Shown piece after piece: positions 4,551-54,678 of a stretch of 64,000 bases of DNA (positions are counted from its first letter, which is position 1; each line of letters starts with the position of its first letter). The DNA is taken from positions 2,006-66,005 of the forward strand of contig JADFZZ010000021.1 of the NCBI GenBank assembly GCA_015232315.1, read 5' to 3'. The notes under the pieces were generated by a model. It was not told the DNA's origin. It made no database searches and worked only from the letters and a program-made list of their open reading frames with translations. Position numbers and translations under genes: made by a program. This DNA is from SAR324 cluster bacterium. Lineage in GTDB: Bacteria; SAR324; NAC60-12.

Positions 4551-7500
4551 CTACATCAACATTGGAAATGAACTCACGGATTGATCAGGGTTGAGTACCA
4601 TTTCCTCCAAAACGGATTGAAAATTTTCTATGATCCTGATCACGGTTTCCGCGTCAAAGAGATCTTTTCTGTAGCGCCACCATCCCCGGAGTGTATTTCC
4701 GGTTGGCGTCTTCTTTTCCCAAATCAGCAGTGCTAAATCCGGTCTTGTCACCAGTTCATCCAACGGCATGGAACTGATGGTCAGATCGGGTAAAAGGAAT
4801 TGTTCGGACGGTTCCATCGGGAAGAAACTGAGCAGTATTCTGAATAAAGGCGTATCAACCTTCCGCTCCGGTTGCAGGATTTTTGACATTTGCTCAAAGG
4901 GTAAATCCTGGTTGGAGATAGCCTCATTCACAACCTGTTGGGCCTGACGCAACAAGTCAGAAAAACCGGGATTTTCACTGAAATCCAGACGCAACAGCAA
5001 CGTGCTTCCAATCATCCCGATCAGATGTTCCAGTTCAGACTGGTTACGATTCGCAAAGGGAGATCCCACCACAATATCCTGACAACCACTGTAGCGATAG
5101 AGCAACGTGGTCAGTGCGGACAAGATCGACGTGAATAAAGTGGTTCCCGTCTGTTTGTTCAGGTTTTTTAGATTTTTAACCAGCTCCGAAGGCAGTTCAT
5201 AAAGCTCCGTGCCTGCCCGGAAAGCCGGAACCGGTTGACGAGGTCTATCGGCAGGAAGTTCCAACAGCGGCGGTTCTCCCCAGCCTAACCAATTCCGCCA
5301 ATAATTGAGTTTTGTTTCAAGGGCCTCTCCGCTGAAAGACTGTTGCTGCCAGACCGCGTAATCCGCATACTGTATCGGCAGACCCGGCAAGGATACAGAG
5401 GCACCGGATATGATGGCTTTATAGAAGATAGTCAGCTCTTTCAGAAAGATTTCCATGGACCAGACATCCATGACGATGTGATGGACGCAAAGCAACAGAA
5501 TATGAGATTCTTCCGCCAGCCTGATCAACGTGACACGCAACAAGGGGCCTGTGACCAGATCAAAGGCGCGGCGTTGAATGTCCTCATCCGCCAATCGTTT
5601 CACTTCTTCAGTCTGTGCCTGTTCAGACATTCCCCGCAAATCTGTGATTGTGATATTGATGGTGGAAGTTGGAGCGATGGACTGAACCGGAGAACCTTCA
5701 ACCAGAGGAAACGTAGTCCGCAATATTTCATGGCGATGTACAATTTCATTCAAACTTTGTTGTAAGATCTTAAAGTCCAGCTTTCCCGTGAGCCGAAACC
5801 AGCGGGGAAAATTATGAAAACAGCCGTCAGGGTTTGATGTCTGGTGCAGCCAATACCTCTGTTGTGAAAAAGAGAGGGGCATGTTGCCTTCACGGGATAC
5901 GGGGATCAGATCGGTATCCTGAACAGTTCGTTCCTGAATGGCCTCATCGTTGACGGAACGATCCGGGGTTTCTCCGATCCGCTGTTGTTCCTCCGGTTGA
6001 ACCTCGGGAAACTTTTTTGCGTATTCGACGTAAATGTGGTCAGACAGTTGCTGGACATTGCCATAATTATAAAGGGCCGTCGTTTTCAGTTTAATGCCAA
6101 ATATTTTATTGATTTTATTAATAATCTCAATGCTCATCAGCGAATCCACGCCATAGTCCAAAAACGATTTTTCCCGGGCTACAGAATCGTTGACCAGTCC
6201 CAGCGTACTGTTCACACACGCTGTAACTTTTTCTTCAATGGTCAGCTTCAGGGATTTTTTCCCGACATCCGTTTGCGGAGATAACGCGGGAAAGTTGTCA
6301 GACGAAGGCGAAGAAGGACTACGTTCTTTCGTTGTTATGGAAGAAGGTGTTTGCTTTTGATAGGCCACCACACCGTTGCTTTCAGCGATCACGATTTGGT
6401 GGGGTTCATGCAACTCTCCCAGTCCCGGATCTCCAAGGTTCGTGATCTTCGCATAGCCTTCTTCCTCAAGCACCCTGTTCCACAACCTGAAATTCAACAA
6501 CGGCCCCCCGCCCAGGCGGATTTCCTCATCTTCATACAACCACCAGCCTTTCAACAAACCGAAAGTTAAGGTGACAAAATCAGGCGCTTTGGACAGTTCA
6601 TTAATGATCAAGACCCCGTTCCTTTTCAAAAGTGATTTGATCTGGGTCAACGTGTTCCTGATGCGTTTGGTGGCATGAAGTACATTTGCCGCCAGGACAA
6701 TATCAAAATCGTCAGGCTTGTAGCCCTGATTTTGAAGATCCTTTTCAATATCCAAAACACTAAACGTCATAAAAGGATATTGTTCACCCAATAGTTTTTT
6801 GCCGTATTGGGTCAACGTGGGGGAAATATCCGTATAGACATAATGGATATGGGGACTGTAGGCCTTGACCGCCTCCAACACCAGGGAGGTGGTTCCACCT
6901 GTTCCAGCGCCGATTTCCAGTATTCGGATTGGTGCTTCATTTCCTTTCGTCAAAGAAAGTCTTTTTTCCACATACAGACGTAAACTTTCGGCGACCCGTG
7001 TATTAAAATAATCCGCGGTAACATTTTTTTTGTATATCCCTTCCACAAGTTCCGGCGATGAATCGGGGAACATGATATTCGTTGCGGGAGTCTCCCCCCT
7101 CAGGATCGCCGGATAATGCGCTATACATTCCCCAAGAAGCCTGAGGTGGGGTTGAATTGACGGAAACTGCCGGAGTAAATCCTCCTTGATCCGCAATTGA
7201 AATTTCCCGGTTTCTTGTGCGGTGATGATATGTTCGCCCTGTTTTTCAATAACACCTGCCCGGGTCAGAATGTCCAGATGCGCGTCAAACAAGCGGTCAT
7301 AGTCCGGTTGTATTCCGAGGTGTTGTCTCAGTTCCGTCCTTGTATAGCGTTCATCTGGGGTTTTGAACACTCCCATTCTCTGATAAGCCGCTAACAGCAA
7401 TTCACGGCTGAATGCTTCCAATTCCCCCAAGGCCACTTCAAACGTTTGGAGTTTTTTGATCTGCTCGGGCAATCCCTGGATTTGCTCAGAAAAATTTTCA

Positions 7501-10500
7501 ACCACGGAGGGGATCGCTTCAGGGTACAGATGGGACTGTTTTTTCAGTTCAATCCCCATTGCGGTTAAGGCGTTATTCTCCGCTTTCACAACAGCAAGTT
7601 GATTGAAGGGATTTTCCAGTGCCCTTTCGATGGCCTGCATCCCCTCCTGAACTTCAATGGAGTAGATCCCTTGCGCTGAAAGTTTTTCCCTGTATTTTTC
7701 ACTGGCCACAACACCCACGTTGCCCCAATATCCCCAATTGATGACCTTAACCGGATAAGACATTTTCTGTTTCAGATACTGCGCGAAGGAATCTTCAAAG
7801 GTGCTGGCCGCGGCATAATTACTTTGTCCCTGATTTCCCAGAAACGACTGGATAGATGAAAAGAACATCATAAAATCCAAAGCTTCTCCAGCCAGTGCCC
7901 TGTGCAGAAAAACACTGCCGTTGACCTTTGGCGCAAGCACTTGCGCAAGGATTTCCTCATTCATGTTCATGACAGAACTGTCTCGCAGAACAAGAGCGGA
8001 ATGAATGGCTCCGTTGATCGGGCCAAACGATGATTTGGCTTGTTCCAAGGCCTGCCTCATACTTTGCGGGTTTGTCACATCGGCCTGAATGTAGAGTACT
8101 TTACCACCCGCTTTTTCTATCCGGGCGATTTTATCTGCCAGAGCATCATCCATTTTGCTTCGGCCCACCCAAATCAGACGGGCCTGCACCGCACTGGCCA
8201 GATATTCACTCAAGGCGAGTCCGATGCCGCCTGCGCCACCCACAATCAGATACACGCCCTGCTGTTTAAAAGGAGTTTTCTGTATCTCGGACAGTGAGAT
8301 CGGCAGTAGTTTTTTGACATAACGGATTCCGTCACGGAGGGCGATTTCTTCAGCATCCTTCCGTGAGGATTCCATGACAATCAGGTCCCCGGTTTTTGAC
8401 AGGGAGTTTTGCAGATCCGCCAGACTGACATCCACACAACGGGTTTCCAGATCCGGAAATTCTCTTGCCACACTTTTTGAGAATCCTGTAACGGAGGCGA
8501 CATAAGGATTGAGGGATTTTTGTGAATAAACCTGCCAGGCATTCGTCGTGATGACAGTAATTTTTATACGGTCCCGGACAGTTTCTTTTCTGTTCAGAGC
8601 CTGAACCAGTCGGAACAGAGAAAAGACGCTTTCTTCCTGACTTTGTTTCAGCACCTCCGGATCCTTATCCAGGGGATCATAAATTCCAGCAAAAAAATAA
8701 ATCACGTCCGGCGCCTCAATTTTTTCCAGCAGATGGCCTATGGCCGAGGGATCATTCGTCTGAATTTGAGTCCGTTGAAGCACTCCCTGCCTTGAAAACG
8801 CAGGACTGCTTTCCCCCTCTTTCCCCAGGAGTATCTCATACACCGTCGCATCACGATGCGCCTCTGCCAGGTAACGGGATAAATCCCTGATTTCCTGAGC
8901 CACATCCGCAGGATAAATGAGGATAACGGTGGCGGCGGAAGGCATAGACTTAGAGTCTGGAGCCAAAGGCGAGGGAACCCATTCAGGCACACAAAAGGTC
9001 AAGGGCCTTTGCTGACGTTGCATAGCACGAGGATCGGCTTTACGTCCCTCAAAGCCCAAAAATTCTATCGCCGGATTGCCCTGCTCATCAAAGAGCCGGA
9101 TATCCCCAAGGAGGCTGTCGTTTCCTGAATCAGGCTGTAATTGACAGTGTCCCCATAAGGGCTGTTGCCTGGAATTTTGATAAAACAGAACTTTTTCTAT
9201 GCGGAACGGAACAAAAGTTTCCTCTAGCGTTCTGTCCATGGCCAATAAGGATAATTCGAAACCGCCATCGATCAACCCCGGATGCAGTTGATATTTGGCT
9301 AATCCAGACAAGGCTGCGGGTGGGATCAATCGGCAAATCGCTTCACGATTCCCCTGACGGATGGATTCGATCCATTGATACGCTGGACCCAGGTCAATCT
9401 GACGCTTACGTTGACTTTGGAAAAAGTCGTCAACCGGGATTGCCTTGGAACAGCGGTCCAATAATTTTGTCAAAAATCCGGAGCCCGGTTTTACATCGTC
9501 AAAGCGTGGTTCTGTCAGAATTTTTCCGGAAACATGAGTGAGCCAACGATCCTTATTTTTTCCGGAACTGATGAGTTTAAAAGAGGATTTATTAGGTTCC
9601 TCAGGAATGAAGGCTAACTGAACCGTACAGCCTTCGTCAGGAATGATCAGGGGTTGCTCAAAAAGGACATCCTCCAGGACACAGTTTTTAACTCCAAAAG
9701 TAATTTCCGCGGCTTCCAGTATCATGGAAATATAACAAGATCCTGAAACCACCATTTTATTATAAATCAGGTGATCCGCCAAAAAAGATAATTTATCCCG
9801 ATGAAAGAAGGTTTCAAACACCGTACTTTCCAGAAAGGGCGAGATGATCTGTTTATCCAGCAACGGATGCAGTTGAGTGTTGGCAGAGTGTGAAGGTTCC
9901 AGACGCTCTGTAGGTCTGTCGATCCAATAACGCTGACGCTGGAAAGGATAAGTTGGCAAAGCCACCCGGCGACGTTGATAGTCATGGTCAAAAGCTGTCC
10001 AGTCTATTGCCGCTCCAAGTCCATACAACTCACCTAAACTTTGCAGAAGTTGTTGCCAATCCTCAGCGCCTTTACGCAAACTGGGAAGCCACACCCCCAC
10101 GTCTTCAGGCAAACAGGAATGTCCCATACCCAATAAGACGGGTTTCGGCCCTATTTCCACAAACACCTCACAACCCTGCTTGTGCAACGTGGCCATGCTT
10201 TGGGCAAAATTGACAGGCTGAGTGATATGCTGACACCAATACTCCGGTGTGGTTATTTCCGCGGAAGCCACTTCACCGGTCAGATTAGAAATCAGGTTGA
10301 TTCCGGGTAATGATAACGTAACCTCCTCAACAACCTTGGAAAACGCCGGTACCATGGGTTCGATCAGAGGCGAGTGGAACGCATGAGAAACCGTTAAGGG
10401 GTTTGTCTTGAGCCCCTCAGTTTCCAATTTTGCGATAATGGTCGCAAGGGCCTCCCTCTGGCCTGAAATCACAATATTTTCAGGGCCATTGAGGGCAGCA

Positions 10501-37693: not shown

Positions 37694-39288
37694 GTCACCA
37701 ACTTTCCTTCTTCCATCCTGATCTGTTGATCTGCGAGATCATAATAATGATCATCATGTGAAACCACAATCACGATCTTCCCCCTGGCTTTTAACTGTGG
37801 AAGAAATTCATGATAAAACGCATCCCGAAACACGGGATCCTGATCGGCGGCCCATTCATCGAACACATAGACCGGTTTTTCTTCAATCAAGGCCAGTATC
37901 AAGGCCAGTCGACGTCGCTGGCCTGAAGATAAACTGTAATTTGAAAATTTATCTTCGTGAAATTCAGTTTTATGATCCAGGTGCATTTTAGACAACAATT
38001 CTTTCATTTGATCGGTATTTACGGGCTGGTCAGAATAAACCCTGTCAAACAGATGATAATCAGAAAATACCGCGGAAATCCATTCGCGCTGAACTCCCGC
38101 GGGTATGAGATGGGTGTTTCTGTAAACAGCGCCCTTACCTGGCGTATATAATCCCGTGAGCACTTTCACTAACGTAGATTTTCCGCTGCCATTGCCGCCA
38201 GTGATGAAATAAATATTGCCCGGTTGAAAGGTCAGGTTTATCGGCCCCAGGGTGAACAGGTGTTTCTTCTGAGCATCAAGATATTCAAACTGGATCTCTT
38301 CAAACCGGATCTCAGTCAACTCTTCCTGAACAAACGCTTCAGTGCCGGTCAAGGATTCCTGTCGTAAGTCCATAATTTCATCTTCCAACTCAAGGATCTT
38401 CCGCACAGAAAGGTTTGCAGTGGTTACCAGCGGCACAGCCTCCATCAAACGCCATAAGGGAATATATAAAACAATAGCGACCGCGGCGATCATGACCTCT
38501 TTGGTGATAACGCCGAACGTGGGCAATACATACACCACAATGATGATCAGAAAATTCCAGAACAGGAGGGTAAAGAGGTAATTCTTGTCAAATTCGGTTC
38601 CTACCTTTATTTTGACATCCCTCATTTGATCCAGTTCACGACACAATTCAAGATGATAGTAATCATCATTTTTCGCGTCATTCATGCGCAGTTCCTTAAA
38701 ACCGAAAATCTGATGCTGAATCGCGTTGAAGAGTTGGCGTTCCTGCTCTCGGCCTTTCTCAATAAAGGTTTGAATACTTGTCTGATGCAGATAATAAACA
38801 ACGATACAAACCAGCATAATAAGGGCAGTGATCAGCGCGACCTTGAACGAGATCCAGGCCAGAAAAATCAGAACCCCCAGAAAGATCACAAAATCGGTGA
38901 GCAGATAAGCTAATACATGGGAGGCATCAAGAATAACATCCATATCATAGGTTAACACATTGTTGATCTGGGATTTTTCAATTTTCTCAAAATCCCGCAA
39001 AGAGATTTTTCGTAAATGATCCAGTATTCCGTTGCGTATTTTTTCAAGAATTTCGTGAACCATTTGAAGAAGCTGGTTCTGTTGAAAACGATAGCTGACC
39101 ATCCACAATATCCAGCCTATAATGAACAGATTCGGGCGTATGGATATTTCCTGATTTTCATAATAGGCGATAGAACCAGCCAGAAAAGAAAACAGCCAAC
39201 TCATCAATCCCCCGGTGAGAATGGAGGATCCTATCAATAAACGAAATTTTTCAGGATTATGTTCCTGAAGTAAACGAAGGAGTTCCAT
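37690..39288 (-). CDS. ABC exporter half-transporter (TMD-NBD) of the SyrD/cyclic-peptide-transporter type.
   Basis: N-terminal 6-TM domain. Walker A GGNGSGKST. Signature LSSGQRRRLAL. Walker B region VYVFDEWAADQDPVFR, the family-typical DEWAADQDP motif. Confidence 0.85.
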   Translation of the reverse strand: MELLRLLQEHNPEKFRLLIGSSILTGGLMSWLFSFLAGSIAYYENQEISIRPNLFIIGWILWMVSYRFQQNQLLQMVHEILEKIRNGILDHLRKISLRDFEKIEKSQINNVLTYDMDVILDASHVLAYLLTDFVIFLGVLIFLAWISFKVALITALIMLVCIVVYYLHQTSIQTFIEKGREQERQLFNAIQHQIFGFKELRMNDAKNDDYYHLELCRELDQMRDVKIKVGTEFDKNYLFTLLFWNFLIIIVVYVLPTFGVITKEVMIAAVAIVLYIPLWRLMEAVPLVTTANLSVRKILELEDEIMDLRQESLTGTEAFVQEELTEIRFEEIQFEYLDAQKKHLFTLGPINLTFQPGNIYFITGGNGSGKSTLVKVLTGLYTPGKGAVYRNTHLIPAGVQREWISAVFSDYHLFDRVYSDQPVNTDQMKELLSKMHLDHKTEFHEDKFSNYSLSSGQRRRLALILALIEEKPVYVFDEWAADQDPVFRDAFYHEFLPQLKARGKIVIVVSHDDHYYDLADQQIRMEEGKLVT

Positions 39289-40882
39289 TGCTGATTTGCC
39301 CTTGCTCCATGGTTAATATTGTATCGGCAAGATGAAAGAAACGATCATCATGACTAATGACAAGAATCACTTTGTTTTGCTGTTTTAAGCGAGGAAGCAG
39401 TGTTTCATAAAAGTACAAACGAAATTTATGATCCTGTTCCGCGGCCCATTCATCAAAAATCACAATAGGCATATCCTCAAGCAATGCCCCAATCATCGCG
39501 AGTCTTTTTCTTTGCCCGGCGGAGAGCTTTATATTAGAAAATTTTCCATTTCCCCAATCCGTTTTGTTGTTGAGAGCCATCTCATCCAACAGCGAATAGA
39601 TCTGTTCTGCCTGAATATTTTCAATGCCGTATAACCCTTCAAACAAATGATAATCCGAAAAAATACAGGATGATAAATAGCGATAATCGCGCAAAGAGAC
39701 GATGGATTCATTCAAGAAAATCTGTCCTGCGGATGGTTCATAAAGTCCGGTGATGATTTTAACAAGCGTCGATTTTCCACTGCCATTCCCCCCAACCAGA
39801 AAGGTGATATGACCCGATCTCAATGTCATATTGACTGGTCCGATGACAAAGCCTTCCTCTTCCGGATATTGAAACTGAACATTCTCCAGACGCAGTGAAT
39901 GGATCTCAGGATTGATTTTGGGACGGATAGAGACATAGTCCGACAGTTCGGGTTTCTGATTGCGTAACATTTCATCCAGCTTATACAACCGATCCAGTGC
40001 GGCATCGCCCGTTGTGATAAAGGGCAAGGACGTATTGAACATTCTGACAGGCCCCCAGCACATGACAATCGCTGTCATGATTTCAGTTACAGTCTGTAAT
40101 GGCAGAAATATGGAAAAAATGAAAATTTCTGTAGCCAGAAACATAAAAAAGGCGCCATCCAGAAATAATTCAGTTTTACCGAATAACCGTGAAGAATTTA
40201 TTCCCTGATTTTTTAGTTGCTTGGCCAGGGGCATCAATTCATTGGAAAAAAAGAAATTACTTTTTTTTTCGCTTAATTTGAGTTCCTTAAAGCCATCCAG
40301 CAACTGCCCCATCACATGAAAGAAGCGGGATTCGGTGTCTGACATGGATTTCTGCTCACCCGCTATCAAATATCGACTTCCTGAGTAAACCCCCAGACCC
40401 ATGAGAAAAGTAATGAACACCGCGATCGCGACAGAAGAGGAAAGATGGACAACATACAGGAAACAGAATCCCACAAGCGTATAGGTCTGTAGCAGATTGA
40501 TATGATAACGCGCGGCCCGGGAAATGGACCGTGCGTCCTTGGTCATGGTCATGTAGAGATCTGAAATCTGATACCGTTCCAACTCAGACAGTTCCGACTG
40601 GCGTAACGCGTTCCCGATGCGTTGTCTCACTTGCTGCATCGTAAAATGAATTAATCGCGTATTCCTGTTCAGCGCAAACCATTTACTGCTTACATAAATG
40701 ATGGAACATACCAGATACACTCCTAGAAAATAAATATCAGATACATCCCACTGCAGGTCTCTTGTGGAATCATTAATAACAATCACCAGTCCGCCACCGG
40801 AGATCCCCGCGATCGCGGACAAACTCAACAATTTGATTTTTTCTTTCTGATTCTCTTTGCCAAACAGATTTGTCAGATTCAT
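39257..40882 (-). CDS. ABC exporter half-transporter (TMD-NBD) of the SyrD/cyclic-peptide-transporter type, partner of the ORF at 37690-39288.
   Basis: Walker A GGNGSGKST. Signature LSAGQRKRLAM. Walker B region IVIFDEWAAEQDHKFR. Overlaps the downstream paralogue by 32 nt. Confidence 0.85.
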   Translation of the reverse strand: MNLTNLFGKENQKEKIKLLSLSAIAGISGGGLVIVINDSTRDLQWDVSDIYFLGVYLVCSIIYVSSKWFALNRNTRLIHFTMQQVRQRIGNALRQSELSELERYQISDLYMTMTKDARSISRAARYHINLLQTYTLVGFCFLYVVHLSSSVAIAVFITFLMGLGVYSGSRYLIAGEQKSMSDTESRFFHVMGQLLDGFKELKLSEKKSNFFFSNELMPLAKQLKNQGINSSRLFGKTELFLDGAFFMFLATEIFIFSIFLPLQTVTEIMTAIVMCWGPVRMFNTSLPFITTGDAALDRLYKLDEMLRNQKPELSDYVSIRPKINPEIHSLRLENVQFQYPEEEGFVIGPVNMTLRSGHITFLVGGNGSGKSTLVKIITGLYEPSAGQIFLNESIVSLRDYRYLSSCIFSDYHLFEGLYGIENIQAEQIYSLLDEMALNNKTDWGNGKFSNIKLSAGQRKRLAMIGALLEDMPIVIFDEWAAEQDHKFRLYFYETLLPRLKQQNKVILVISHDDRFFHLADTILTMEQGQISNGTPSFTSGT

Positions 40883-40930
40883 ACAATCACAATATTTTTC
40901 AGGAAAACCAGGGGGTAAACGTAACGAAGA

Positions 40931-41100
40931 ATCCCCTGCTGTAAATAATTTGGTGATGAAATCCTGTGGCCCTCCACGATGTCATCCCCGTGAAAACGGG
41001 GATCCATGAGTGCGCCGATGGATTCCGTGTCAAGCACGGAATGACACCGTGCGATGGCTTGAATCGGTTGCCGTCACCAGAAAATTTACAGCAACAAAAA
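40931..41100 (+). repeat. 170-bp MITE-like structured repeat, copy 1.
   Basis: About 93% identical to 61591-61760. Imperfect ~20-bp terminal inverted repeats (TGCTGTAAATAATTTGGTGA ... TCACCAGAAAATTTACAGCA). Internal hairpins ATCCCCGT-GAAA-ACGGGGAT and TTCCGTG-TCAAG-CACGGAA. Confidence 0.6.
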
Positions 41101-41108
41101 TCCAGAGA

Positions 41109-41537
41109 TTAAAAGGTTTTCATAATTTTTCTGGAACCCTGAATGCATTCACAAAGGATAGTGATAATATTCAGTCCAACCTCCACATATTCATTGGCGA
41201 AATCCAGAAACGCGACAGCGTTTAAAGTCAGCAATTCGCTATCTTCATGCGCTATCATGGTTATTTTGCTTTCGTGAGGAGCCAGAATCGCCAATTGTCC
41301 TACGTATGCGCCACGGTCCAGCACCTCCAGACATTTTTCCTGTCCGTATATACCGATCTGTCCTGAGAGAACCAGAAACAGGTTTGTCATGGTATCACCA
41401 TTCCGGATCAACACTTCTTCCGAGTAAACCTTCAATTCTTCAAACCGGATTGCCATTTCTCCCAGCATTTCATCAGAAATTCCGGAAAAAACCTGGATGT
41501 TCTTTAAATACAGCACACGTTCAATTATTGGTCTCAT
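41109..41537 (-). CDS. Stand-alone cyclic-nucleotide-binding domain protein.
   Basis: 142 aa. cNMP-binding motifs LFLVLSGQIGIYG...GAYVGQLAIL. It sits at the head of the exporter operon. Confidence 0.7.
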   Translation of the reverse strand: MRPIIERVLYLKNIQVFSGISDEMLGEMAIRFEELKVYSEEVLIRNGDTMTNLFLVLSGQIGIYGQEKCLEVLDRGAYVGQLAILAPHESKITMIAHEDSELLTLNAVAFLDFANEYVEVGLNIITILCECIQGSRKIMKTF

Positions 41538-42036
41538 AGAATCCCTATATTTTGCTTTGATTTTCGTGAAACACTTCTGCTAAGTATCAGATCAAAAATC
41601 TTTCACCATTCTGAATTATTCCGTTTTCCTTAAAGGATCTCTCAGAGAGATGCCCTGACAAGAGCTGAATTACCATCACTGTTCTGTAACAATCCAGCGA
41701 TTTGTGTTCCTTTTTTTACGTGTGAAATGAAACCATAATTTGATCCAATTCAATTTTTAGAAGGTTTGTGGCCATTTTCATTGTCACTATCCTGTAATAC
41801 GGAAATTGACCGGCAATGAATTCGCGCCTGAAGGGATATCATGAAAGTGAATAGCCGGGAGAAAACACTGGCAATTGAGAGATAATTATGAAAGATAAGC
41901 GGACACACAAGAAGTTACGGCCTCCAATATCCGATTTGTCCCTGGCCACGTTGATGATATGGTGGAGTCGCGGAACCCATACCTTTCCAGTATCGCTTTT
42001 AAATGACAATTTGGTCATTCATTACGACGGACCACA

Positions 42037-42118
42037 ATCCGAACGGTGGATGTCGTTGATTGGATACAACCACCGGAATCCGAACGGTGGATGTCGTTGA
42101 TTGGATACAACCACCGGA
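42037..42118. repeat. Perfect 41-bp tandem duplication (2 copies).
   Basis: The unit atccgaacggtggatgtcgttgattggatacaaccaccgga is repeated head-to-tail in intergenic DNA. Confidence 0.6.
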
Positions 42119-42700: not shown

Positions 42701-43065
42701 ATATTGAACAGACTGACCGTGATGTTGCCTGGGGGAATGGACAAAGCCGAAGATTTCTCATTGCCAGTGACGGAATGGGTTTCACGTTGACGGATACTGT
42801 CGTTCTGGCGGGTTCAGAATCAAGATTGCAATATCGTAATCACGTTGAAGCTTGTTATTGCATTGAAGGCGAAGGGGAAGTTGAGGTGGATGGTAAAATT
42901 TACCCGATCAAGACCGGCACAATGTATGCGCCAAATCAACACGATATTCATTATCTTCGAGCGACTAAGACAATGCGTCTGGTGTGTGTGTTTTCGCCTG
43001 CGTTACAAGGCCCTGAATCCCATCAACTGCAACACACAGACAATCCTTCCGCCTCAAGTTATTAA
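42679..43065 (+). CDS. Ectoine-synthase (EctC)-like cupin.
   Basis: 128 aa. MIIRTLSDIEQTDRDV...EACYCIEGEGEVEVDGKIYPIKTGTMYAPNQHDIHYLRATKTMRLVCVFSP aligns along its length with Halomonas EctC (MIVRNLEEA..TDR...EAVYCIEGEGEVE...DGKIWPIKPGDIY.LDQHDEH.LRA.KTM.L.CVF.P). AAAGGAG RBS. Confidence 0.85.
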   Translation: MIIRTLSDIEQTDRDVAWGNGQSRRFLIASDGMGFTLTDTVVLAGSESRLQYRNHVEACYCIEGEGEVEVDGKIYPIKTGTMYAPNQHDIHYLRATKTMRLVCVFSPALQGPESHQLQHTDNPSASSY

Positions 43066-43087
43066 CGGCATCGCTTCCGGGTTTCGC

Positions 43088-46000
43088 ATGAATTTTTCTC
43101 AGACTTCAATGACTGATTTTATAGAGCTTGTTCGTACACAGGCTTCCAAAAATCCGCACAATATTGCCGTTTATCACCGTAATCAGATACTCAACTATGA
43201 ACAGCTTGAGCGTCGTTCTAATCAACTCGCTCATTATTTACTGAGTCTGAAGATCCAACCTGAGCAGTTGATCGGTTTATGTCTGCCCCGTTCGATCCTG
43301 TTGACGGAGGCCATGCTTGGAATTCTAAAGGCCGGAGCGGCTTATGTGCCGTTAGATCCTGCTTATCCACGCAAACGTCTGGAAGACATGCTGGAAGACA
43401 GTCAACTGAATATTGTGCTCCTGAATGATGCCACCGATCATCTGATTTCATCGTTAAAAACCCTCAATTCTGAACTGCAAAAAATTCATCTGGCATTGAA
43501 CTGGGAGATCATTGCGTCATTCCCTTCAACGCCTCCCGATATCACCTTCCGTGACGACCAACTTGCCTATTGTTTATACACATCAGGTTCCACAGGAAAA
43601 CCCAAAGGGGTGCTGATGGAACACAAACCGTTGTCCAATTTAATCCACTGGCATCTTAAAAATCGTGTGACTCCCGCACGTCAATTGCAATTCGCACCTC
43701 TGAATTTTGACATTTCTTTTCAGGAGATTTTCGCGACCTGGTGTTCAGGTGGCAGTTTGTTTATCATAGACGATTCTGTCAGACGCAATCCATCCGCATT
43801 ATTGGATTTTATCTGCACCCACGCCATAGAAAAACTCTATTTGCCATTTACGGCCCTGCAACAATTGTCTATTATCGCACACGACAGTGATCACTACCCT
43901 GTGCAATTGCGTGAGGTGATTACCGCTGGAGAACAATTGCAGATTACTCCGGCAATTCGGGAACTCTTTACACGTACCGGTGCCCGGTTGCATCATCACT
44001 ATGGCGCAACGGAGTGTCAGGATGTTACCGCACTGGATCTGACAGGTGATCCGCAAGATTGGCCCTTACTCCCCTGCATTGGAAAAGCGATTGATAATAT
44101 ACAGATCCATATTCTGGATTCGCGGTTATCTCCGGTAGGCAGGGATGAAACAGGTGAACTTTATGTGGCGGGAGATGGACTGGCACGTGGTTATCTGCAT
44201 CGGCCGGAACTGAATGAGGCTCGATTTATCAACACACCAGATATCGGACGCCTTTATAAAACCTGCGACAGAGCCCGATACGGCACCGATGGACAGATAG
44301 AATTATTAGGACGATCTGATCATGCGGTGAAAATTCGTGGATTCAGCGTGGAGTTGGGGGAGATTGAAGCGATTTTACTGCAACATAAAGATATAGATCA
44401 GGCAGTGGTAGTGGCACATCAAGATGATTCCGGTCATAAACGACTGCTGGCCTATGTGGTGTTACACAAAAACAAAATACTATCCACCCAGCAATTGCAT
44501 GAACATCTGGAACAACGTTTACCTCAATACATGATTCCGGCAATGTTTATTCTCTTGGACGGCCTGCCTATGACGCCAACCGGCAAAGTCAACCGTGGTG
44601 ACTTACCACCACCTTTTATGCAGGTGCGTCCGGAAGTGGATCACAGTTTTGAATCGGCACGTACCCCCCTGGAAGAAACCTTGACTACAATCTGGCAAAA
44701 CGTGTTGAACATTGAACAGATCGGAATCCATGATGATTTTTTTTCACTGGGAGGAGATTCCTTTTTGCTGATTACATTATTCAGCACGATAAAGAATCAA
44801 CTGGGAACGGATGTCCCACTGGCTGATTTGCTACAAGAACTCAACATTGCCGATCTGGCCAACTTATTACAGCATAAGGCCCCGCATCCAAGCCATACCG
44901 CTTTGTCAGTCAATGAACTACAGGGCTATGCTATCTGTCCGCTTCAATCTCAGCTTCCGGCAGTTACAGAACTGAATAAGCCAAAAAATATTTTATTAAC
45001 AGGTGCGACGGGATTTCTGGGTTCATTCCTGTTACAGGAATTGCTGGAGAAAACCGATGCTGATATTTATTGTCTGGTGCGGGGCAAGGACCCCTCACAG
45101 GCGTTACAACGTTTGCTCGACAGTCAGAAACAGCGTGAGTTATCCCTTTCAACAGATTTCCACAAACGACTGCATGTGGTGTGTGGTGATATGGCCAAAC
45201 CCCTTTTGGGGGTAACCCGAAAACAATGGAAGCATCTGACTGAACTGATTGACAGTGTTTATCATGCCGCGGCAAATATTAACATGTTATACCCTTATCC
45301 GGTACTTCACGCCATCAATGTTCAGGGAACACAGGAGATTATTAAGTTTTCCACGCATTCACGTTGCAAAACCTTGCACTATATTTCCAGCACAGCCATT
45401 TTTGAAGCTCAGGGATTTTTTCATCGACAACAGCCGATTCCTGAAAATATTGATATTCAGGAATGTGCCCGTATTTACGGCGGTTATGCTCAAAGTAAAT
45501 GGGTTGCTGAAAAACTGTTGCATCAGGCTCGGGAAAAAGGGCTTGCTGTGAGTATCTATCGTTTGGGGATGTTGACAGGACACAGCCGTTCCGGCGTATC
45601 CAATATCAACGACATGATGTGCAAACTGCTCAAACAGTTTGTGGTACAAAAACGCATCCCTGAATTGACCACTCCACTGGATATGACTCCGGTTGATTAT
45701 GTAGCTCAGGTGATAGTCCATTTATCACAACAGACTCCGGAAAATGGCTACTGTTTTCATGTTGTGAATCCTCAACCGCCTTCTTTTTTTGAATTATACC
45801 GGTTCTTCAACCAATTGGGATATCCTCTGCAAATGATCAATTATGCTCAATGGATTGATCAACTTGAAAACCTGTCACTGGATTCAAAGGAAAACGCTTT
45901 GGGAACGATGTTGCCCATTTTTACGGAAAGCGTTGAGGGCAAAACCTACCTGGAATTTTCTTCTTTATGTCAGAACTTTAATCATGATAATACTCACCTT

Positions 46001-46102
46001 GGATTAAGCAACAGTTCTATACGTTGCTCTGCGGTAACACCGGATTTGTTGTCAACCTATTTGAATTATTTTGTACGGCAGGGCTTTTTGAGCGCTCCCT
46101 AA
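43088..46102 (+). CDS. Single-module NRPS with domains A - PCP - R (thioester reductase).
   Basis: A domain: LAYCLYTSGSTGKPKGV, FDISFQEIF, YGATE, TGKVNRGDL. PCP: FFSLGGDSFLL. R domain: LTGATGFLGSFLL and YAQSKWVAEKLL. The upstream part of the track ORF (42845-43087) overlaps ectC and was discarded. Confidence 0.9.
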   Translation: MNFSQTSMTDFIELVRTQASKNPHNIAVYHRNQILNYEQLERRSNQLAHYLLSLKIQPEQLIGLCLPRSILLTEAMLGILKAGAAYVPLDPAYPRKRLEDMLEDSQLNIVLLNDATDHLISSLKTLNSELQKIHLALNWEIIASFPSTPPDITFRDDQLAYCLYTSGSTGKPKGVLMEHKPLSNLIHWHLKNRVTPARQLQFAPLNFDISFQEIFATWCSGGSLFIIDDSVRRNPSALLDFICTHAIEKLYLPFTALQQLSIIAHDSDHYPVQLREVITAGEQLQITPAIRELFTRTGARLHHHYGATECQDVTALDLTGDPQDWPLLPCIGKAIDNIQIHILDSRLSPVGRDETGELYVAGDGLARGYLHRPELNEARFINTPDIGRLYKTCDRARYGTDGQIELLGRSDHAVKIRGFSVELGEIEAILLQHKDIDQAVVVAHQDDSGHKRLLAYVVLHKNKILSTQQLHEHLEQRLPQYMIPAMFILLDGLPMTPTGKVNRGDLPPPFMQVRPEVDHSFESARTPLEETLTTIWQNVLNIEQIGIHDDFFSLGGDSFLLITLFSTIKNQLGTDVPLADLLQELNIADLANLLQHKAPHPSHTALSVNELQGYAICPLQSQLPAVTELNKPKNILLTGATGFLGSFLLQELLEKTDADIYCLVRGKDPSQALQRLLDSQKQRELSLSTDFHKRLHVVCGDMAKPLLGVTRKQWKHLTELIDSVYHAAANINMLYPYPVLHAINVQGTQEIIKFSTHSRCKTLHYISSTAIFEAQGFFHRQQPIPENIDIQECARIYGGYAQSKWVAEKLLHQAREKGLAVSIYRLGMLTGHSRSGVSNINDMMCKLLKQFVVQKRIPELTTPLDMTPVDYVAQVIVHLSQQTPENGYCFHVVNPQPPSFFELYRFFNQLGYPLQMINYAQWIDQLENLSLDSKENALGTMLPIFTESVEGKTYLEFSSLCQNFNHDNTHLGLSNSSIRCSAVTPDLLSTYLNYFVRQGFLSAP

Positions 46103-48799: not shown

Positions 48800-50863
48800 T
48801 CACGCGGAATGGGAATCTTCCTCCACCAGGAGCTCTGATGATTTCTGACGATTCTTCATGAGAGGAAGCATCGCATTGACAGATCCTGCGCCCACACTGG
48901 TTATAAACAAAATCACCGAAGCCAGAATTTTGAAGTTAAACAGGAATATTCCGGTAATTCCGATGGCACCGGGAATGATGGCGGTTAAAAAACCATGACG
49001 TGTATTGTCAGCCATTTCCGTAGCCAGTTCAAACAGAGTCGGAACATGTTTCAGCGTATGATCCATCAAAACGATACCGGCAGTATCCAGGGCCGCAGTC
49101 GATGCACCCTGAATGGAAACCGACACATTAGCCGTTTTTAAGGCGACTGTGTCATTGATGCCATCCCCTATAAAACATATTGATTTTCCCTGTAGTTGAA
49201 GTTCCTGAATAATTTTTGCTTTATCCTGGGGCAATACTTCTGAAAAATAATGCTCAATGCCTAGCTCCTGAGCCAGTTTGCGGGTAGGTGCTTCATGATC
49301 TCCGGAGATAATATAGGTGGCGAGTCCCAGTTCCTTGAGTCGCCCGATCACAGATTGTGCTTCAGGACGTAAGGAAACATGGAGTTCCAGAATGCCAATC
49401 AATTGCTGGTTGCAGGCCACATACACCAGTCCGTAACCATTGTCTTCAGCCGTTTGTCGGATTTTCTGAACCAGTGCGCCGGGAGAGAGTGAGATCGCTT
49501 CGTTCGTCATAAAACGCTCACTTCCCACATGAATCTGAGCGGTTCCCACTTTCACCTTAATGCCGTACCCGATTTCATAAAGAGCATCCTCAATCTCCGG
49601 TATCATGATCTGGCACGCCTTAGCCTGTTTGACAATGGCTTTGGCAATGGGGTGTGACTGTTTATGTTCTGCCGCCGCCGCATATTGCAGAATCACTTCT
49701 TCCGGTTCATCATTCAGGAGGTAAATCTGACCCACTTGAGGCTCCTCCAGGGTCAGGGTTCCCGTCTTGTCAAACACAACCGTATCCACGTCCTTTAATA
49801 ATTCCAGACAGCGTCCATCCTTCACCAGAATCCCCTGCTCGGACGCAAGTCTCAGATAATTCAATACTCCCAGGGGAACCGTCATTCGGGTGGTCTCCAT
49901 AAAGTTACAACTGACCATGGCTGTGGCACTGATCGGTCCCATCATCGCCCATGTCACCCCACCCATCGCAATGGTTGGACCTGCCAGCATATCCGCGAAC
50001 TGGATGGTTCTGGCTTCCACAGAGGACTTGAAATCAGCCGTATTCTGTAAAATCCTGCCGATCTTGGCCGCCGAGGTTTCACTGGCTTCATGAACCACCT
50101 TTACCTGAATTTTTCCGCTAATCACCATCGTGGCGGCAAGCACGGAATCACCGGATACTTTTTCTACCGGTTGAGACTCTCCTGTCAGAATATGTTGATC
50201 GACCGAAGCAAAGCCCTGCACCACGATCCCGTCAATCGGAATCATTTCACCAGCCTGAAGGATAATGATATCTCCCGACTTCAGGGTTTCAAACGGAATT
50301 TCGATCTCTGTCCCTTCCTTGAACAACCAGACAAATTGAGGCTGCTGACCAAAAATATTTATCATTTGTTTTTTGGACATATCCTCTGTTTTGAGCAACA
50401 GTTTGTTGCTTAAAAAAAAGGCAATGGATGCCAGTGATCCAATCCAGTAATATCCGGTAGCAAAGGTTCCTACGATGGCAATGCTGTCCACCGCACTGGC
50501 TCGAATCCGTTTTTCATGTATCAGATTATGAAAGGTGTCTTTGAATATGGGCAGGCTGACATAGATGAGCAAGGGCAGGGTAATCAGATTGATGGGCGTA
50601 TAAACCAATGCGCCCAGTGTTGCTGTTCCCAAAGTAACGCCAGCGACTTTTATATAATGATCGAGTTCCTCCTCAGTCTCCTTATGGGACAGAACCTTTG
50701 AAGATTCCGGAATGATTGGAATGTTCGGTTCTTGTTCTCCGGAATCGGATAAAGAGAGTTTTTCAGAAACCAGAATGGGCTTGGAGGTTGGGTTTTCGCC
50801 TTCTTTGTAGGCGGAATATCCGGCATAAGCCAATCCGCCTAAAATCAATATTGCTGGAAGCAT
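48800..50863 (-). CDS. P-type ATPase (687 aa), paralogue of the ATPase at 1-1990.
   Basis: Motifs VVFDKTGTLT, ISGDHEAPTRKLAQELGIEHYFSEVLPQDKAKIIQELQ and GDGINDTVAL. There is no N-terminal heavy-metal-associated domain and no CPC motif in the TM region. The N-terminus MLPAILILGGLAYAGYSAY resembles that of the other copy. Confidence 0.85.
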   Translation of the reverse strand: MLPAILILGGLAYAGYSAYKEGENPTSKPILVSEKLSLSDSGEQEPNIPIIPESSKVLSHKETEEELDHYIKVAGVTLGTATLGALVYTPINLITLPLLIYVSLPIFKDTFHNLIHEKRIRASAVDSIAIVGTFATGYYWIGSLASIAFFLSNKLLLKTEDMSKKQMINIFGQQPQFVWLFKEGTEIEIPFETLKSGDIIILQAGEMIPIDGIVVQGFASVDQHILTGESQPVEKVSGDSVLAATMVISGKIQVKVVHEASETSAAKIGRILQNTADFKSSVEARTIQFADMLAGPTIAMGGVTWAMMGPISATAMVSCNFMETTRMTVPLGVLNYLRLASEQGILVKDGRCLELLKDVDTVVFDKTGTLTLEEPQVGQIYLLNDEPEEVILQYAAAAEHKQSHPIAKAIVKQAKACQIMIPEIEDALYEIGYGIKVKVGTAQIHVGSERFMTNEAISLSPGALVQKIRQTAEDNGYGLVYVACNQQLIGILELHVSLRPEAQSVIGRLKELGLATYIISGDHEAPTRKLAQELGIEHYFSEVLPQDKAKIIQELQLQGKSICFIGDGINDTVALKTANVSVSIQGASTAALDTAGIVLMDHTLKHVPTLFELATEMADNTRHGFLTAIIPGAIGITGIFLFNFKILASVILFITSVGAGSVNAMLPLMKNRQKSSELLVEEDSHSA

Positions 50864-52598: not shown

Positions 52599-53204
52599 CT
52601 ATCGCTGAATCCAGGGACGAACATCCACCACATGCATCCCCGCGGAACGGGCCGCTTGCAGTCCGGCCTCCGCATCTTCAAACGCCACGCATTTTTCAGG
52701 GGCAATCCCAAGCTGTTTTGCCGCTATCAGAAACACGTCCGGTGCGGGTTTGGGAGGACACGTGCCCCGTGAACTGATCACCGCGTCAAAGAAGGCCAGA
52801 ATTCCGATTGCCCGCAAGGAAGCTTCTGCGGATTCTTTGGTGCTGCCTGTCGCAACGGCCATGGGGCGTTTTCCATAAAAACAGCGCACAATGTCAACCA
52901 CAAATGTTACCGGGCGCAATTCACTGGCAGGCAGACTGTGGAAACAGGCATCCCGTTCCGCGGCAAGAGCACCGATATCCACGGTTTTTCCCTGTTCAAC
53001 AGCCAGACGCCGAATGATCTCATCTACGGGAACACCGGCCCATTGATAAAATCGGGTTTCAGTGAATTCCAACTGGTGACGAGTCATAACAGTATTCCAC
53101 GCCTGGTAATGCAAGGGCATTGAGTCAACCAGGGTGCCATCGCAATCAAATATCAAACCTTGATATCCTCGGGGTAATTGCCATTCAGACATAGCATTCC
53201 TCAT
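52599..53204 (-). CDS. HAD-superfamily hydrolase (phosphatase or beta-phosphoglucomutase-like).
   Basis: Motif I is LIFDCDGTLVDS. Motif IV is FEDAEAGLQAARSAGM. 201 aa. Confidence 0.75.
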   Translation of the reverse strand: MRNAMSEWQLPRGYQGLIFDCDGTLVDSMPLHYQAWNTVMTRHQLEFTETRFYQWAGVPVDEIIRRLAVEQGKTVDIGALAAERDACFHSLPASELRPVTFVVDIVRCFYGKRPMAVATGSTKESAEASLRAIGILAFFDAVISSRGTCPPKPAPDVFLIAAKQLGIAPEKCVAFEDAEAGLQAARSAGMHVVDVRPWIQR

Positions 53205-53207
53205 CTC

Positions 53208-53265
53208 GACAGTGGTAAGTTCTCAGCGTTCAGTTTTCAGTTTTTTTGTAAGCGTTCAGCTTTCA
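53208..53265. repeat. Short dispersed repeat, copy B.
   Basis: Same 25-nt core, followed by GTTCAGTTTTCAGTTTTTTTG. It sits between the HAD gene start and the left end of the IS5 element. Confidence 0.45.
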
Positions 53266-54172
53266 GAAACCTTTTTGTAAAAATTAGATATATTTTCTGA
53301 CAGTAAGCCGAATCATGGCAATTCGTACCATGTTTTCAGCAGTTTCAATAAGAATTTCAAAGTCTTTAGCAAGTCGTCGGAATCCTCCAAACCAGGCGAG
53401 AGTTCGTTCAACAATCCAACGTTTGGGTAAAATGGTCATTTTCCCATCGTTGGAGTTTTTGGGTTGATCCTTGACGGTTTTGGAAATATCAAGGCGTTTT
53501 CCCAGTTGTTCCCGGACAAAGTCCACGGAGGTTCCCTGGTAGCCGCCATCGGCGGAAAAAGCGTCAAGCGAAGGATAACGTTCCAGCGCTTCCTGGAAGA
53601 CACGGCATCCCTCCACCGTGTCGGATTTATTGGCGGCATGTACGATGATATGGAGCAGGTTTCCCAGAATGTTGACACAGATATGGCGTTTGCGGCCTTT
53701 CACTTTTTTCCCGCCGTCAATGCCACGATCGTCGCTATCATATGGGGTTTTCACACTTTGGGAATCGACGATTCCATAGGAAGGTGTGGCGGAACGCCCT
53801 TGTTTTTGACGGGCAAGGGAGTTGAGAGCATCCAGGATTTTTTGCCATGTTCCATTCCGACACCACTTGCGATAGTGGTCATAGACCGTTTGCCAAGGCG
53901 GAAAATCATGAGGAAGATACTCCCATTGACAACCCGTTTTGTTGATATAAAAGATGGCATTGATAATCGTTCGTCGGCTGTGAATATGGGAAGACCCCCG
54001 ACCATCCTTGGGACGGAGAAAGGGTTCGATCACGGACCATTCGGCATCGGTAACGTCGCTGGGATACATAGTACCTCGTAGGGAGTAGGTTGGAAATACC
54101 CCCTTTATACCATCTTTATGACAATTGATGAAGAATCTAAAAAATAACTTTTTTTTTACCAAAAGGCTTCTT
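53266..54172 (-). mobile_element. IS5-family insertion sequence (about 0.9 kb) with imperfect ~19-bp terminal inverted repeats.
   Basis: Left end AGAAACCTTTTTGTAAAAA. The reverse complement of the right end is about AGAAGCCTTTTGGTAAAAA. It contains a single DDE transposase gene. Confidence 0.65.
53284..54069 (-). CDS. IS5-family DDE transposase (IS1031/IS427-like, with the N-terminal DUF4096-type region).
   Basis: MYPSDVTDAEWSVIEPFLRP...INKTGCQWEYLP...WQTVYDHYRKW is typical of IS5 transposases. The C-terminal DDE region is ...RWIVERTLAWF.... The track ORF extends 31 codons upstream into the inverted repeat. The ATG at 54069 is preferred. Confidence 0.8.
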   Translation of the reverse strand: MYPSDVTDAEWSVIEPFLRPKDGRGSSHIHSRRTIINAIFYINKTGCQWEYLPHDFPPWQTVYDHYRKWCRNGTWQKILDALNSLARQKQGRSATPSYGIVDSQSVKTPYDSDDRGIDGGKKVKGRKRHICVNILGNLLHIIVHAANKSDTVEGCRVFQEALERYPSLDAFSADGGYQGTSVDFVREQLGKRLDISKTVKDQPKNSNDGKMTILPKRWIVERTLAWFGGFRRLAKDFEILIETAENMVRIAMIRLTVRKYI

Positions 54173-54405: not shown

Positions 54406-54678
54406 TCAACTTTTTTTATAAACTTCTCTCCTATGTCCTACCGCAATGACTAATACAATGAGTTTTTCATCAAAAATTTCACAAAGAACCCGATAATCAC
54501 CAATCCTATAACGCCAATATCCGCTTTTGTCACCTTTTAACGGTTCTCCAAAGTGGCGTGGATTTTTGCAATCTTCTATTCGTTCACTGAGAAAATCCAA
54601 AATCCGTTTTTGGGTGGAACGATCCATTTTTCTGATTTGCTTTTCGGCAACGGTTCCGATTTTAATTTTCCAACCCAA
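54406..54678 (-). CDS. RelE/ParE-family type II toxin.
   Basis: 90 aa. YRYRIGDYRVLCEIFDEKLIVLVIAVGHRREVY is the canonical RelE C-terminus. Confidence 0.85.
   Translation of the reverse strand: MGWKIKIGTVAEKQIRKMDRSTQKRILDFLSERIEDCKNPRHFGEPLKGDKSGYWRYRIGDYRVLCEIFDEKLIVLVIAVGHRREVYKKS

Follow-up and report, generated by a model that had tools for sequence, protein, structure and literature searches.

A putative Ssn-related hairpin repeat within an inverted-repeat shell in a SAR324 bacterium

SsnA, a small single-domain GIY-YIG nuclease, binds and cuts the Neisseria Transformation Sequence (NTS; CGTCATTCCCGCGMAVGCGGGAATCYRG), of which the classical dRS3 repeat forms part. The enzyme acts on this sequence only when it is single-stranded DNA (ssDNA) and only on one of its strands, RNA being no substrate (Chenal et al., Nat Commun 2025, PMC11893778). 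Cleavage needs three nucleotides before the palindrome and binding needs a C after it, copies of the motif usually stand on either side of ssn genes in an NTS-ssn-NTS layout, and a degenerate Ssn-related motif (SRM) is enriched in many bacteria (PMC11893778). Bertels and Rainey (bioRxiv 10.1101/2021.07.10.451892) treat the Neisseria sequence ATTCCCGCGCAGGCGGGAATC as a REPIN of a Group 2 RAYT. Here we consider a repeat present twice in 64,000 nucleotides of a SAR324 cluster bacterium (contig JADFZZ010000021.1; this whole stretch is called the window), which an earlier reading of the same DNA, the original prediction, had taken for a miniature inverted-repeat transposable element (MITE)-like element.

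We read the element as a SAR324 member of the NTS/dRS3/Ssn-related hairpin repeats, in composite with a MITE-like shell, and give this explanation as a whole a probability of roughly 60%. By analogy, the element would then group with hairpin repeats of the repetitive extragenic palindrome (REP), REPIN and Neisseria intergenic mosaic element (NIME) types, which act through ssDNA, and not with MITEs defined by transposase ends.

A two-copy repeat and its paired-hairpin core

The two copies, A at 40935-41097 and B at 61594-61756 (strand not set; supported by repeat finder, alignment and folding), form a single direct-repeat family of 163 nt, 96% identical and in the same orientation. Pairwise alignment shows identity dropping abruptly just beyond both limits, with unrelated flanks. 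Two copies in the same orientation had been proposed before; the proposed size of 170 bp and identity of about 93% were slightly off. The terminal inverted repeats and the GAAA-loop and TCAAG-loop hairpins of the original prediction are borne out. The 20-nt terminal pattern TGCTGTAAATNNTTNGGTGA, with 1 mismatch, matches four sites, one per end of each copy, and shuffles average 0.28 matches. In copy A the ends lie at 40937-40956 (+ strand; TGCTGTAAATAATTTGGTGA, 0 mismatches) and 41074-41093 (TGCTGTAAATTTTCTGGTGA on the - strand), and in copy B at 61596-61615 (+) and 61733-61752 (-). Both hairpins, ATCCCCGT-GAAA-ACGGGGAT and TTCCGTG-TCAAG-CACGGAA, can be read directly in the sequence, and the 163-nt unit folds far better than its shuffles (RNA z = -7.3 and -6.3 for the two strands, DNA z = -6.3). 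The element is a real, non-coding, hairpin-forming repeat with sharp boundaries.

The published SRM pattern, HGTCWYN(0-2)YYVSBRHN(0-5)WNVSBRGN(0-2)RNCYNB, has exactly two matches in the window, at 40980-41007 (TGTCATCCCCGTGAAAACGGGGATCCAT) and 61639-61666 (TGTCATCCCCGTGAAAACGGGGATCCAG), both on the + strand and each within one copy; first-order Markov resampling of the window gives 0.1 expected. These matches, hairpin 1 of each copy, are semi-palindromes that form hairpins oriented with GTC 5' and C 3', as judged from ssDNA folds and the family covariation of helix 2, and the GTC before and the C after the palindrome are kept in both hairpins of both copies. Like the NTS, the element is intergenic and repeated. 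Four of the mismatches of hairpin 1 to the NTS amount to two compensatory stem pairs (T7C with A22G, C12T with G17A). The palindrome type is likewise that of dRS3, ATTCCC-N8-GGGAAT in Neisseria and ATCCCC-N8-GGGGAT here, the strict dRS3 pattern being missed through a compensated T>C / A>G pair. By its sequence, hairpin 1 is a compensated variant of NTS/dRS3. The related cores of other phyla have the canonical NTS as their left half.

Hairpin 1 does not stand by itself. Unlike a lone NTS, it invariably has as partner a second hairpin of different sequence on the opposite strand, and the motif lies inside a 163-nt shell that has terminal inverted repeats of its own. The conserved 71-nt core, at 40978-41048 in copy A and 61637-61707 in copy B (+), is an inverted doublet: two hairpins flank a variable third, and GTC and GAC close the whole. 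The middle hairpin of copy A, supported by covariation, occupies 41002-41023 (+; ATCCAT-GAGTGCGCCG-ATGGAT). Hairpin 2 lies on the - strand, at 41018-41046 in copy A (TGTCATTCCGTGCTTGACACGGAATCCAT, with the TCAAG loop on the + strand) and at 61677-61705 in copy B (TGTCATACCGTGCTTGACACGGAATCCAT, with one stem mismatch; from sequence, alignment and ssDNA fold). It has the GTC-ATTCC...GGAAT-C frame of the NTS around a different stem-loop: read on the opposite strand, the right half of the core is TGTCATTCC-GTGCTTGACAC-GGAATCCAG, which keeps the GTC and the trailing C. The two core hairpins therefore share the frame GTCATTCC...GGAATC on opposite strands and differ in stems and loops.

A scan of one genome per species, with a pattern built from bases common to the window and to the Francisella RNA FtrB (CCCGNGNANNCGGG-N15-35-CGTGTCAAGCACG), matched at least 120 loci. 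Among the matches listed are Nitrospirota, Patescibacteria, Chloroflexota, Desulfobacterota, Campylobacterota, Bacteroidota, Planctomycetota, Alpha- and Gammaproteobacteria, Fibrobacterota, Latescibacterota and others, and the groundwater Nitrospirota metagenome-assembled genome (MAG) JACRHJ01 alone accounts for 16 core copies. Their consensus is (Y)GTCATT CCCGCGAAAGCGGG AATCCAG-variable-CTGGATT CCGTGTCAAGCACGG AATGAC(R), with sharp limits at GTC and GAC. The left GTCATT is kept in 116 of 117 loci, its GTC not being imposed by the pattern, and on the right side GAATGACA is conserved across the family loci, so that conservation reaches well past the imposed bases. Hairpin 2 is conserved in all of 106 family cores, from Nitrospirota, Patescibacteria, Chloroflexota and at least seven further phylum-level groups, although its central 13 nt were imposed by the search pattern.

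A covariance model, R1, built from these 106 cores of other genomes with the window copies left out, recovers both cores, at 40978-41048 (74.2 bits, E 2.6e-20) and 61637-61707 (73.4 bits, E 4.6e-20). Two intermediate matches (E 0.00047 and 0.029) are the minus strand of the same two cores, and no other independent site in the window does better than E 0.3. The E-values of such a home-made model are rough, and 23 bases of its training pattern derive from the window and FtrB. Even so, the core very probably belongs to a pan-bacterial repeat family, and what is conserved across bacteria is the interior of the element, not its terminal repeats.

In the plasmid collection, the NTS half alone gave matches, all in unannotated sequence, from Neisseria, Azospirillum and a few others. 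Around the 120 listed loci no neighbour protein family is enriched; only spurious open reading frames (ORFs) translating the repeat recur. Such ORFs across the cores (L001-L120) yield recurring peptides, for example SFPRKRESS...IPCQARND and VIPAKAGIQ / IPAFAGMT, which cluster across unrelated genomes.

DNA-level structure and the FtrB RNA

Covariation supports all three hairpins, which are maintained through compensatory change. Among the 106 cores, both partners have changed in 12 of 23 pairs and 96.8% of cells are paired, a level reached by 0 of 500 shuffles. Hairpin 1 varies from ATT/AAT to ATA/TAT or ATC/GAT, the middle hairpin from ATCCAG/CTGGAT to ATCTAT/ATAGAT with double changes in all 4 pairs, and hairpin 2 from TT/AA to CC/GG in 22-28 sequences.

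Conserved pairing of this kind could serve an RNA, and one rival explanation is a structured small RNA or cis-regulatory RNA like FtrB, with one strand transcribed and acting on neighbours or in trans. FtrB is a 115-nt Francisella tularensis RNA confirmed by Northern blot and rapid amplification of cDNA ends, and its published probe contains GTCATTCCCGCGTAGGCGGGAATC (PMC3091763). It is the only Rfam signal of note: a permissive scan placed FtrB (RF02748) on the + strand at 40956-41067 with 28.5 bits and E 0.011, the other six permissive matches all having E of at least 4.6. Both hairpins are common to FtrB and the window element, including CGUGUCAAGCACG. The fold is also very stable, and both window copies are oriented alike relative to their flanking genes.

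Several observations speak against an RNA. The FtrB score is far under the gathering score of 66, and no family reaches its gathering threshold anywhere in the window. Wobble pairs in the 106 cores comprise 28 G.T and 44 A.C, with no strand asymmetry and no excess of G.U over A.C. Across 63 loci, the core lies in the same orientation as both neighbour genes in 25 cases and opposite to both in 19, with no bias. Folded as ssDNA, both strands of the copy A core give one and the same four-way junction, at -18.7 and -18.4 kcal/mol. No promoter or terminator signals attributable to the element were found in the window copies. The family is multi-copy, mosaic and at times tandem, deletion of FtrB had no phenotype (PMC3091763), and SsnA is inactive on RNA (PMC11893778). 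Because of this strand symmetry, the lack of orientation bias, the equal ssDNA folds, the lack of transcription signals and the ssDNA-only activity of SsnA, the evidence points to structure that matters in DNA, in a DNA-level hairpin element, and we consider the RNA explanation very unlikely.

FtrB itself differs from the window element in having no shell, and the window copies are known as a DNA repeat only. Judged by sequence, FtrB looks like a transcribed copy of the NTS-type doublet DNA repeat, not a lineage-specific small RNA gene.

The outer shell and the genomic setting

Around the core of the window copies runs a shell with ends TGCTGTAAAT..GGTGA, whose stem reaches up to the core. Complementary flanks surround just about 20% of cores in other genomes and are lineage-specific where present; an outer stem as a universal feature was rejected on these grounds. 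The shell ends are absent from the 120 listed genome loci, and among the other fetched loci they occur only in L131 and L121. The first of these is a metagenome element (L131:4682-4815) with the same ends (20/20 and 18/20, the 20/20 end matching the right terminal inverted repeat of copy A) around an unrelated hairpin interior with no core. It is the one true relative from a metagenome scan for the shell ends, whose 12 other matches are unrelated chance matches, mostly within coding sequence. No further composite copies came from the metagenome scan, and a translated-element search gave no candidates.

Shell and core are separable modules, since L131 has the same ends without the core and another shell family, in L114, hosts different interiors; in this genome, shell and core have been copied together, because the two copies share 163 nt and nothing else. 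From the one comparison with L131, the core may have landed in the tip of a pre-existing hairpin repeat. The other shell family is seen at L114:4340-4520 and in L026 (minus-strand offset 249), where TGTCAT...ATGACA interiors that differ from each other lie within one outer-arm family (TTACTAAGGAGTTCATAAGTAAG...); one interior carries an extra inserted hairpin, a modular shuffling of hairpin units. Tandem growth is seen on a marine metagenome contig, where L129:590-1500 holds 8.3 tandem copies of a 109-nt unit (also at L123:5443-5962), a variant doublet in the same frame (TGTCATTCCGACGATAGGAGGAATC ... CAGAATGACA). The repeat superfamily can therefore form tandem arrays like those of bacterial interspersed mosaic elements (BIMEs).

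A shell with such ends invites comparison with classical MITEs, in which a deletion derivative of an insertion sequence (IS) would be moved as double-stranded DNA by a DDE transposase through its 20-bp ends, the NTS-type core being a passenger. The terminal inverted repeats are well above chance, L131 shares them around a different interior, and the element resembles Correia/NEMIS MITEs in its length of about 160 bp, its terminal inverted repeats and its intergenic position. A possible 5-bp duplication can also be drawn, AATCC at 40930-40934 and 41099-41103 for copy A and TCATT / TCTTT (4/5) for copy B, with two copies available for comparison; it requires the same 1-nt offset at the right end in both cases and is imperfect at copy B. 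No clear target-site duplication is seen at the two copies.

The window offers no parent either. Its only transposase, IS5-like (53284-54162), was rejected as parent since its ends are unrelated, and no transposase with matching ends was found. Just three instances of the ends are known, and the strong conservation lies in the interior hairpins, in contrast to Correia/NEMIS elements. The shell stem reaches the core, as in a hairpin element rather than in protein-binding ends. A classical MITE is thus, in our estimation, distinctly unlikely. What still stands of the original MITE-like reading is that the repeat is short, non-coding and palindromic, occurs more than once between unrelated flanks and has ends that define a small family; the interior conservation and the lack of a window transposase with matching ends do not fit it, and the target-site duplication is no more than possible.

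The transposase, of the IS4/IS5 family (DUF4096 + DDE_Tnp_1, - strand), adjoins a ParE toxin gene (54406-54678, -). Just beside the transposase gene, the 46 nt at 53203-53248 have a second, 91% identical copy at 24365-24410.

Each copy sits in a narrow gap between two genes that both run on the minus strand. Copy A lies 11 nt past the stop of a cNMP-binding gene (41109-41537, -) and lies 52 nt ahead of the ATG of a "cyclic peptide export" ABC transporter gene (39257-40882, -). Copy B lies 51 nt past the stop of an FGE-sulfatase/CsgG-domain gene (61808-63478, -), and 33 nt beyond it is the ATG, at 61560, of a 196-aa ORF. The TTG start at 61692 of the longer ORF 60970-61692 falls within copy B, and for this reason the 44-codon N-terminal extension of that ORF is most likely an artefact of ORF calling, as had been suggested; the product from ATG 61560 opens with a hydrophobic, signal-peptide-like stretch. 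The recombinase fragment (60392-60961), which the original prediction had placed beside copy B, is not directly adjacent, the 196-aa ORF intervening.

This fragment raises a further explanation, in which the direct repeats would be attL and attR of a 20.5-kb island integrated by a tyrosine recombinase just inside copy B. The repeats have the same orientation and lie 20,659 nt apart, the Phage_integrase-domain ORF is 633 nt inside copy B, and dRS3 is a known phage integration target in Neisseria (PMC11893778). Between the copies, however, are core housekeeping genes (DAHP synthase, YceD, PlsX), composition shows no break, the recombinase is a C-terminal fragment of 189 aa, and in a near-identical MAG the junction at copy A is unchanged. 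We rejected such an island on gene content, composition and the truncated integrase, and hold it to be extremely unlikely. An integron attC was also rejected on reading the sequence, as the R''/R' boxes do not fit and cassette geometry is absent.

The near-identical SAR324 MAG (L121; JADGBI010000102.1, GCA_015231535.1) shares copy A and its site with the window. A few single-nucleotide polymorphisms separate the two, one of which makes the middle hairpin of the MAG agree with copy B and not with copy A, and the MAG contig stops about 400 bp right of copy A, within the cNMP-binding gene. Outside this SAR324 species, even the closest homologues of the flanking genes do not exceed 37% identity.

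Elsewhere in the window, a perfect-register tandem duplication of a 41-nt unit (42031-42112, 95% identical) sits in a 1.3-kb non-coding gap upstream of a carboxylic-acid-reductase-like gene (42845-46102). A 140-nt direct repeat (833-972 and 49724-49863, 72% identity) is probably paralogous coding sequence, as its second copy lies inside a P-type ATPase gene (48800-50863). A giant minus-strand ORF of 4085 aa spans 4551-16808, and the repeat finder detected 66-nt periodic repeats (22 aa, leucine-rich-repeat-like) in the gene at 26743-28236.

Candidate partner enzymes and biological meaning

In one of the other genomes carrying the core, L016, a 96-aa GIY-YIG (UPF0213-like) gene at 5710-6000 (-) stands between canonical NTS at 5580-5607 (-) and 6010-6037 (-). 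This is the published NTS-ssn-NTS layout, with the NTS on the gene's own strand, and the nearest solved relative of the protein is UPF0213 BH0048. Adjoining these NTS copies are further modules in the GTCATTCC...GGAATCCAG frame with longer interiors. A second GIY-YIG gene lies near a core in L028, without a clear link. By analogy with Neisseria, an Ssn nuclease could be the acting partner in this organism, a tentative assignment to which we give slightly under an even chance.

The same element could instead be served by a RAYT, one of the Y1/HUH transposases of the IS200/IS605 superfamily that are associated with REPs. The core would then be a REPIN, two inverted REP hairpins within about 130 bp, mobilised as ssDNA. 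The core is an inverted doublet of related hairpins forming a larger hairpin, the arrangement that defines a REPIN; like REPs, REPINs and BIMEs, the element is extragenic and non-autonomous and shows long-term conservation. BIME-like mosaic or tandem arrangements occur elsewhere (the flanks in JACRHJ01, the L129 array), and the assignment by Bertels and Rainey favours a RAYT for the Neisseria sequence. The doublet hairpins, however, differ in sequence, unlike those of typical REPINs: the window halves are not copies of one REP and have no GTAG-type head. No RAYT was found nearby, the sole IS200-like TnpA near a core (L059) is not flanked by repeats, and the only biochemistry on the exact motif is that of SsnA (PMC11893778). 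A RAYT as partner therefore seems unlikely to us.

An Ssn-related repeat remains our preferred explanation, and several observations weigh against it. A strict NTS (at most 1 mismatch) is not present, hairpin 1 having 6 mismatches in copy A and 5 in copy B, and hairpin 2 gave no match to the published SRM pattern. Within the 64-kb window there is no GIY-YIG or Y1-transposase gene, hence no ssn gene, and a GIY-YIG gene lies within the fetched 8 kb in just 2 of the 120 listed loci, not clearly above chance. The partner enzyme is disputed even in Neisseria, since Bertels and Rainey assign the same sequence to a RAYT. The composite is documented only at the two window sites and at the copy A site in L121, and the family sample of at least 120 loci is biased to near-canonical cores by a pattern derived from the window and FtrB. 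In other genomes (JACRHJ01, L016, L114) the core combines with other repeat modules in mosaics, as NIMEs do; the window sites, in contrast, show no array or mosaic. A further difference from the published motif is the host, SAR324 being unmentioned in the main text of PMC11893778.

As an Ssn-related repeat, the 163-nt unit would be a non-autonomous, non-coding DNA repeat in two layers. The inner layer, the 71-nt GTC-[hairpin 1]-[variable hairpin]-[hairpin 2]-GAC, has hairpin 1 on the + strand and hairpin 2 on the - strand, so that each strand may offer one Ssn-type site once single-stranded. The outer layer, the lineage-specific inverted-repeat shell, lengthens the structure into a long hairpin with the core at its tip. 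Judging from the literature, the hairpins may be extruded on DNA made single-stranded in replication, transformation or repair, and, by analogy with Neisseria SsnA, a small Ssn-family GIY-YIG nuclease with a single domain, its gene lying elsewhere in the genome, could bind them and cut just 5' of GTC, a RAYT-type Y1 transposase being the alternative partner. Such cleavage might limit recombination of incoming ssDNA and possibly spread the repeat, with effects on flanking transcripts as possible by-products.

A bolder proposal, improbable by our own estimate, is that the two-strand doublet rather than the single NTS hairpin may be the unit selected across bacteria, offering an Ssn-type site per strand, a near-invariant TCAAG-loop partner and GTC/GAC closure. 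It might be mobile via ssDNA and a GIY-YIG nuclease and land in hairpin tips, FtrB being a transcribed copy. We found the doublet sequence, an NTS-type hairpin with its partner hairpin, in no paper of the searchable literature. Were the proposal true, DNA would be marked for cleavage whichever strand becomes single-stranded, a GIY-YIG nuclease and not a transposase would drive the spread of the family through ssDNA, and a preference for existing hairpin tips would produce nested composites like the 163-nt SAR324 element.

For annotation, the analysis clears this region of a misleading assignment as MITE or RNA gene and of an ORF extension that is an artefact. ORFs over the element, which encode peptides like SFPRKRESS and IPCQARND, probably give rise to false proteins when MAGs are annotated, and FtrB as a transcribed DNA repeat would bear on the interpretation of such Rfam small RNAs. 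On our reading, the host range of the Ssn-target hairpin repeats described in 2025 would come to include SAR324, a major uncultured lineage of the deep ocean. A near-identical paired-hairpin core of about 70 nt is found from Patescibacteria to Nitrospirota, and the constant pairing of the NTS hairpin with an opposite-strand partner suggests that cleavage may be possible on either strand.

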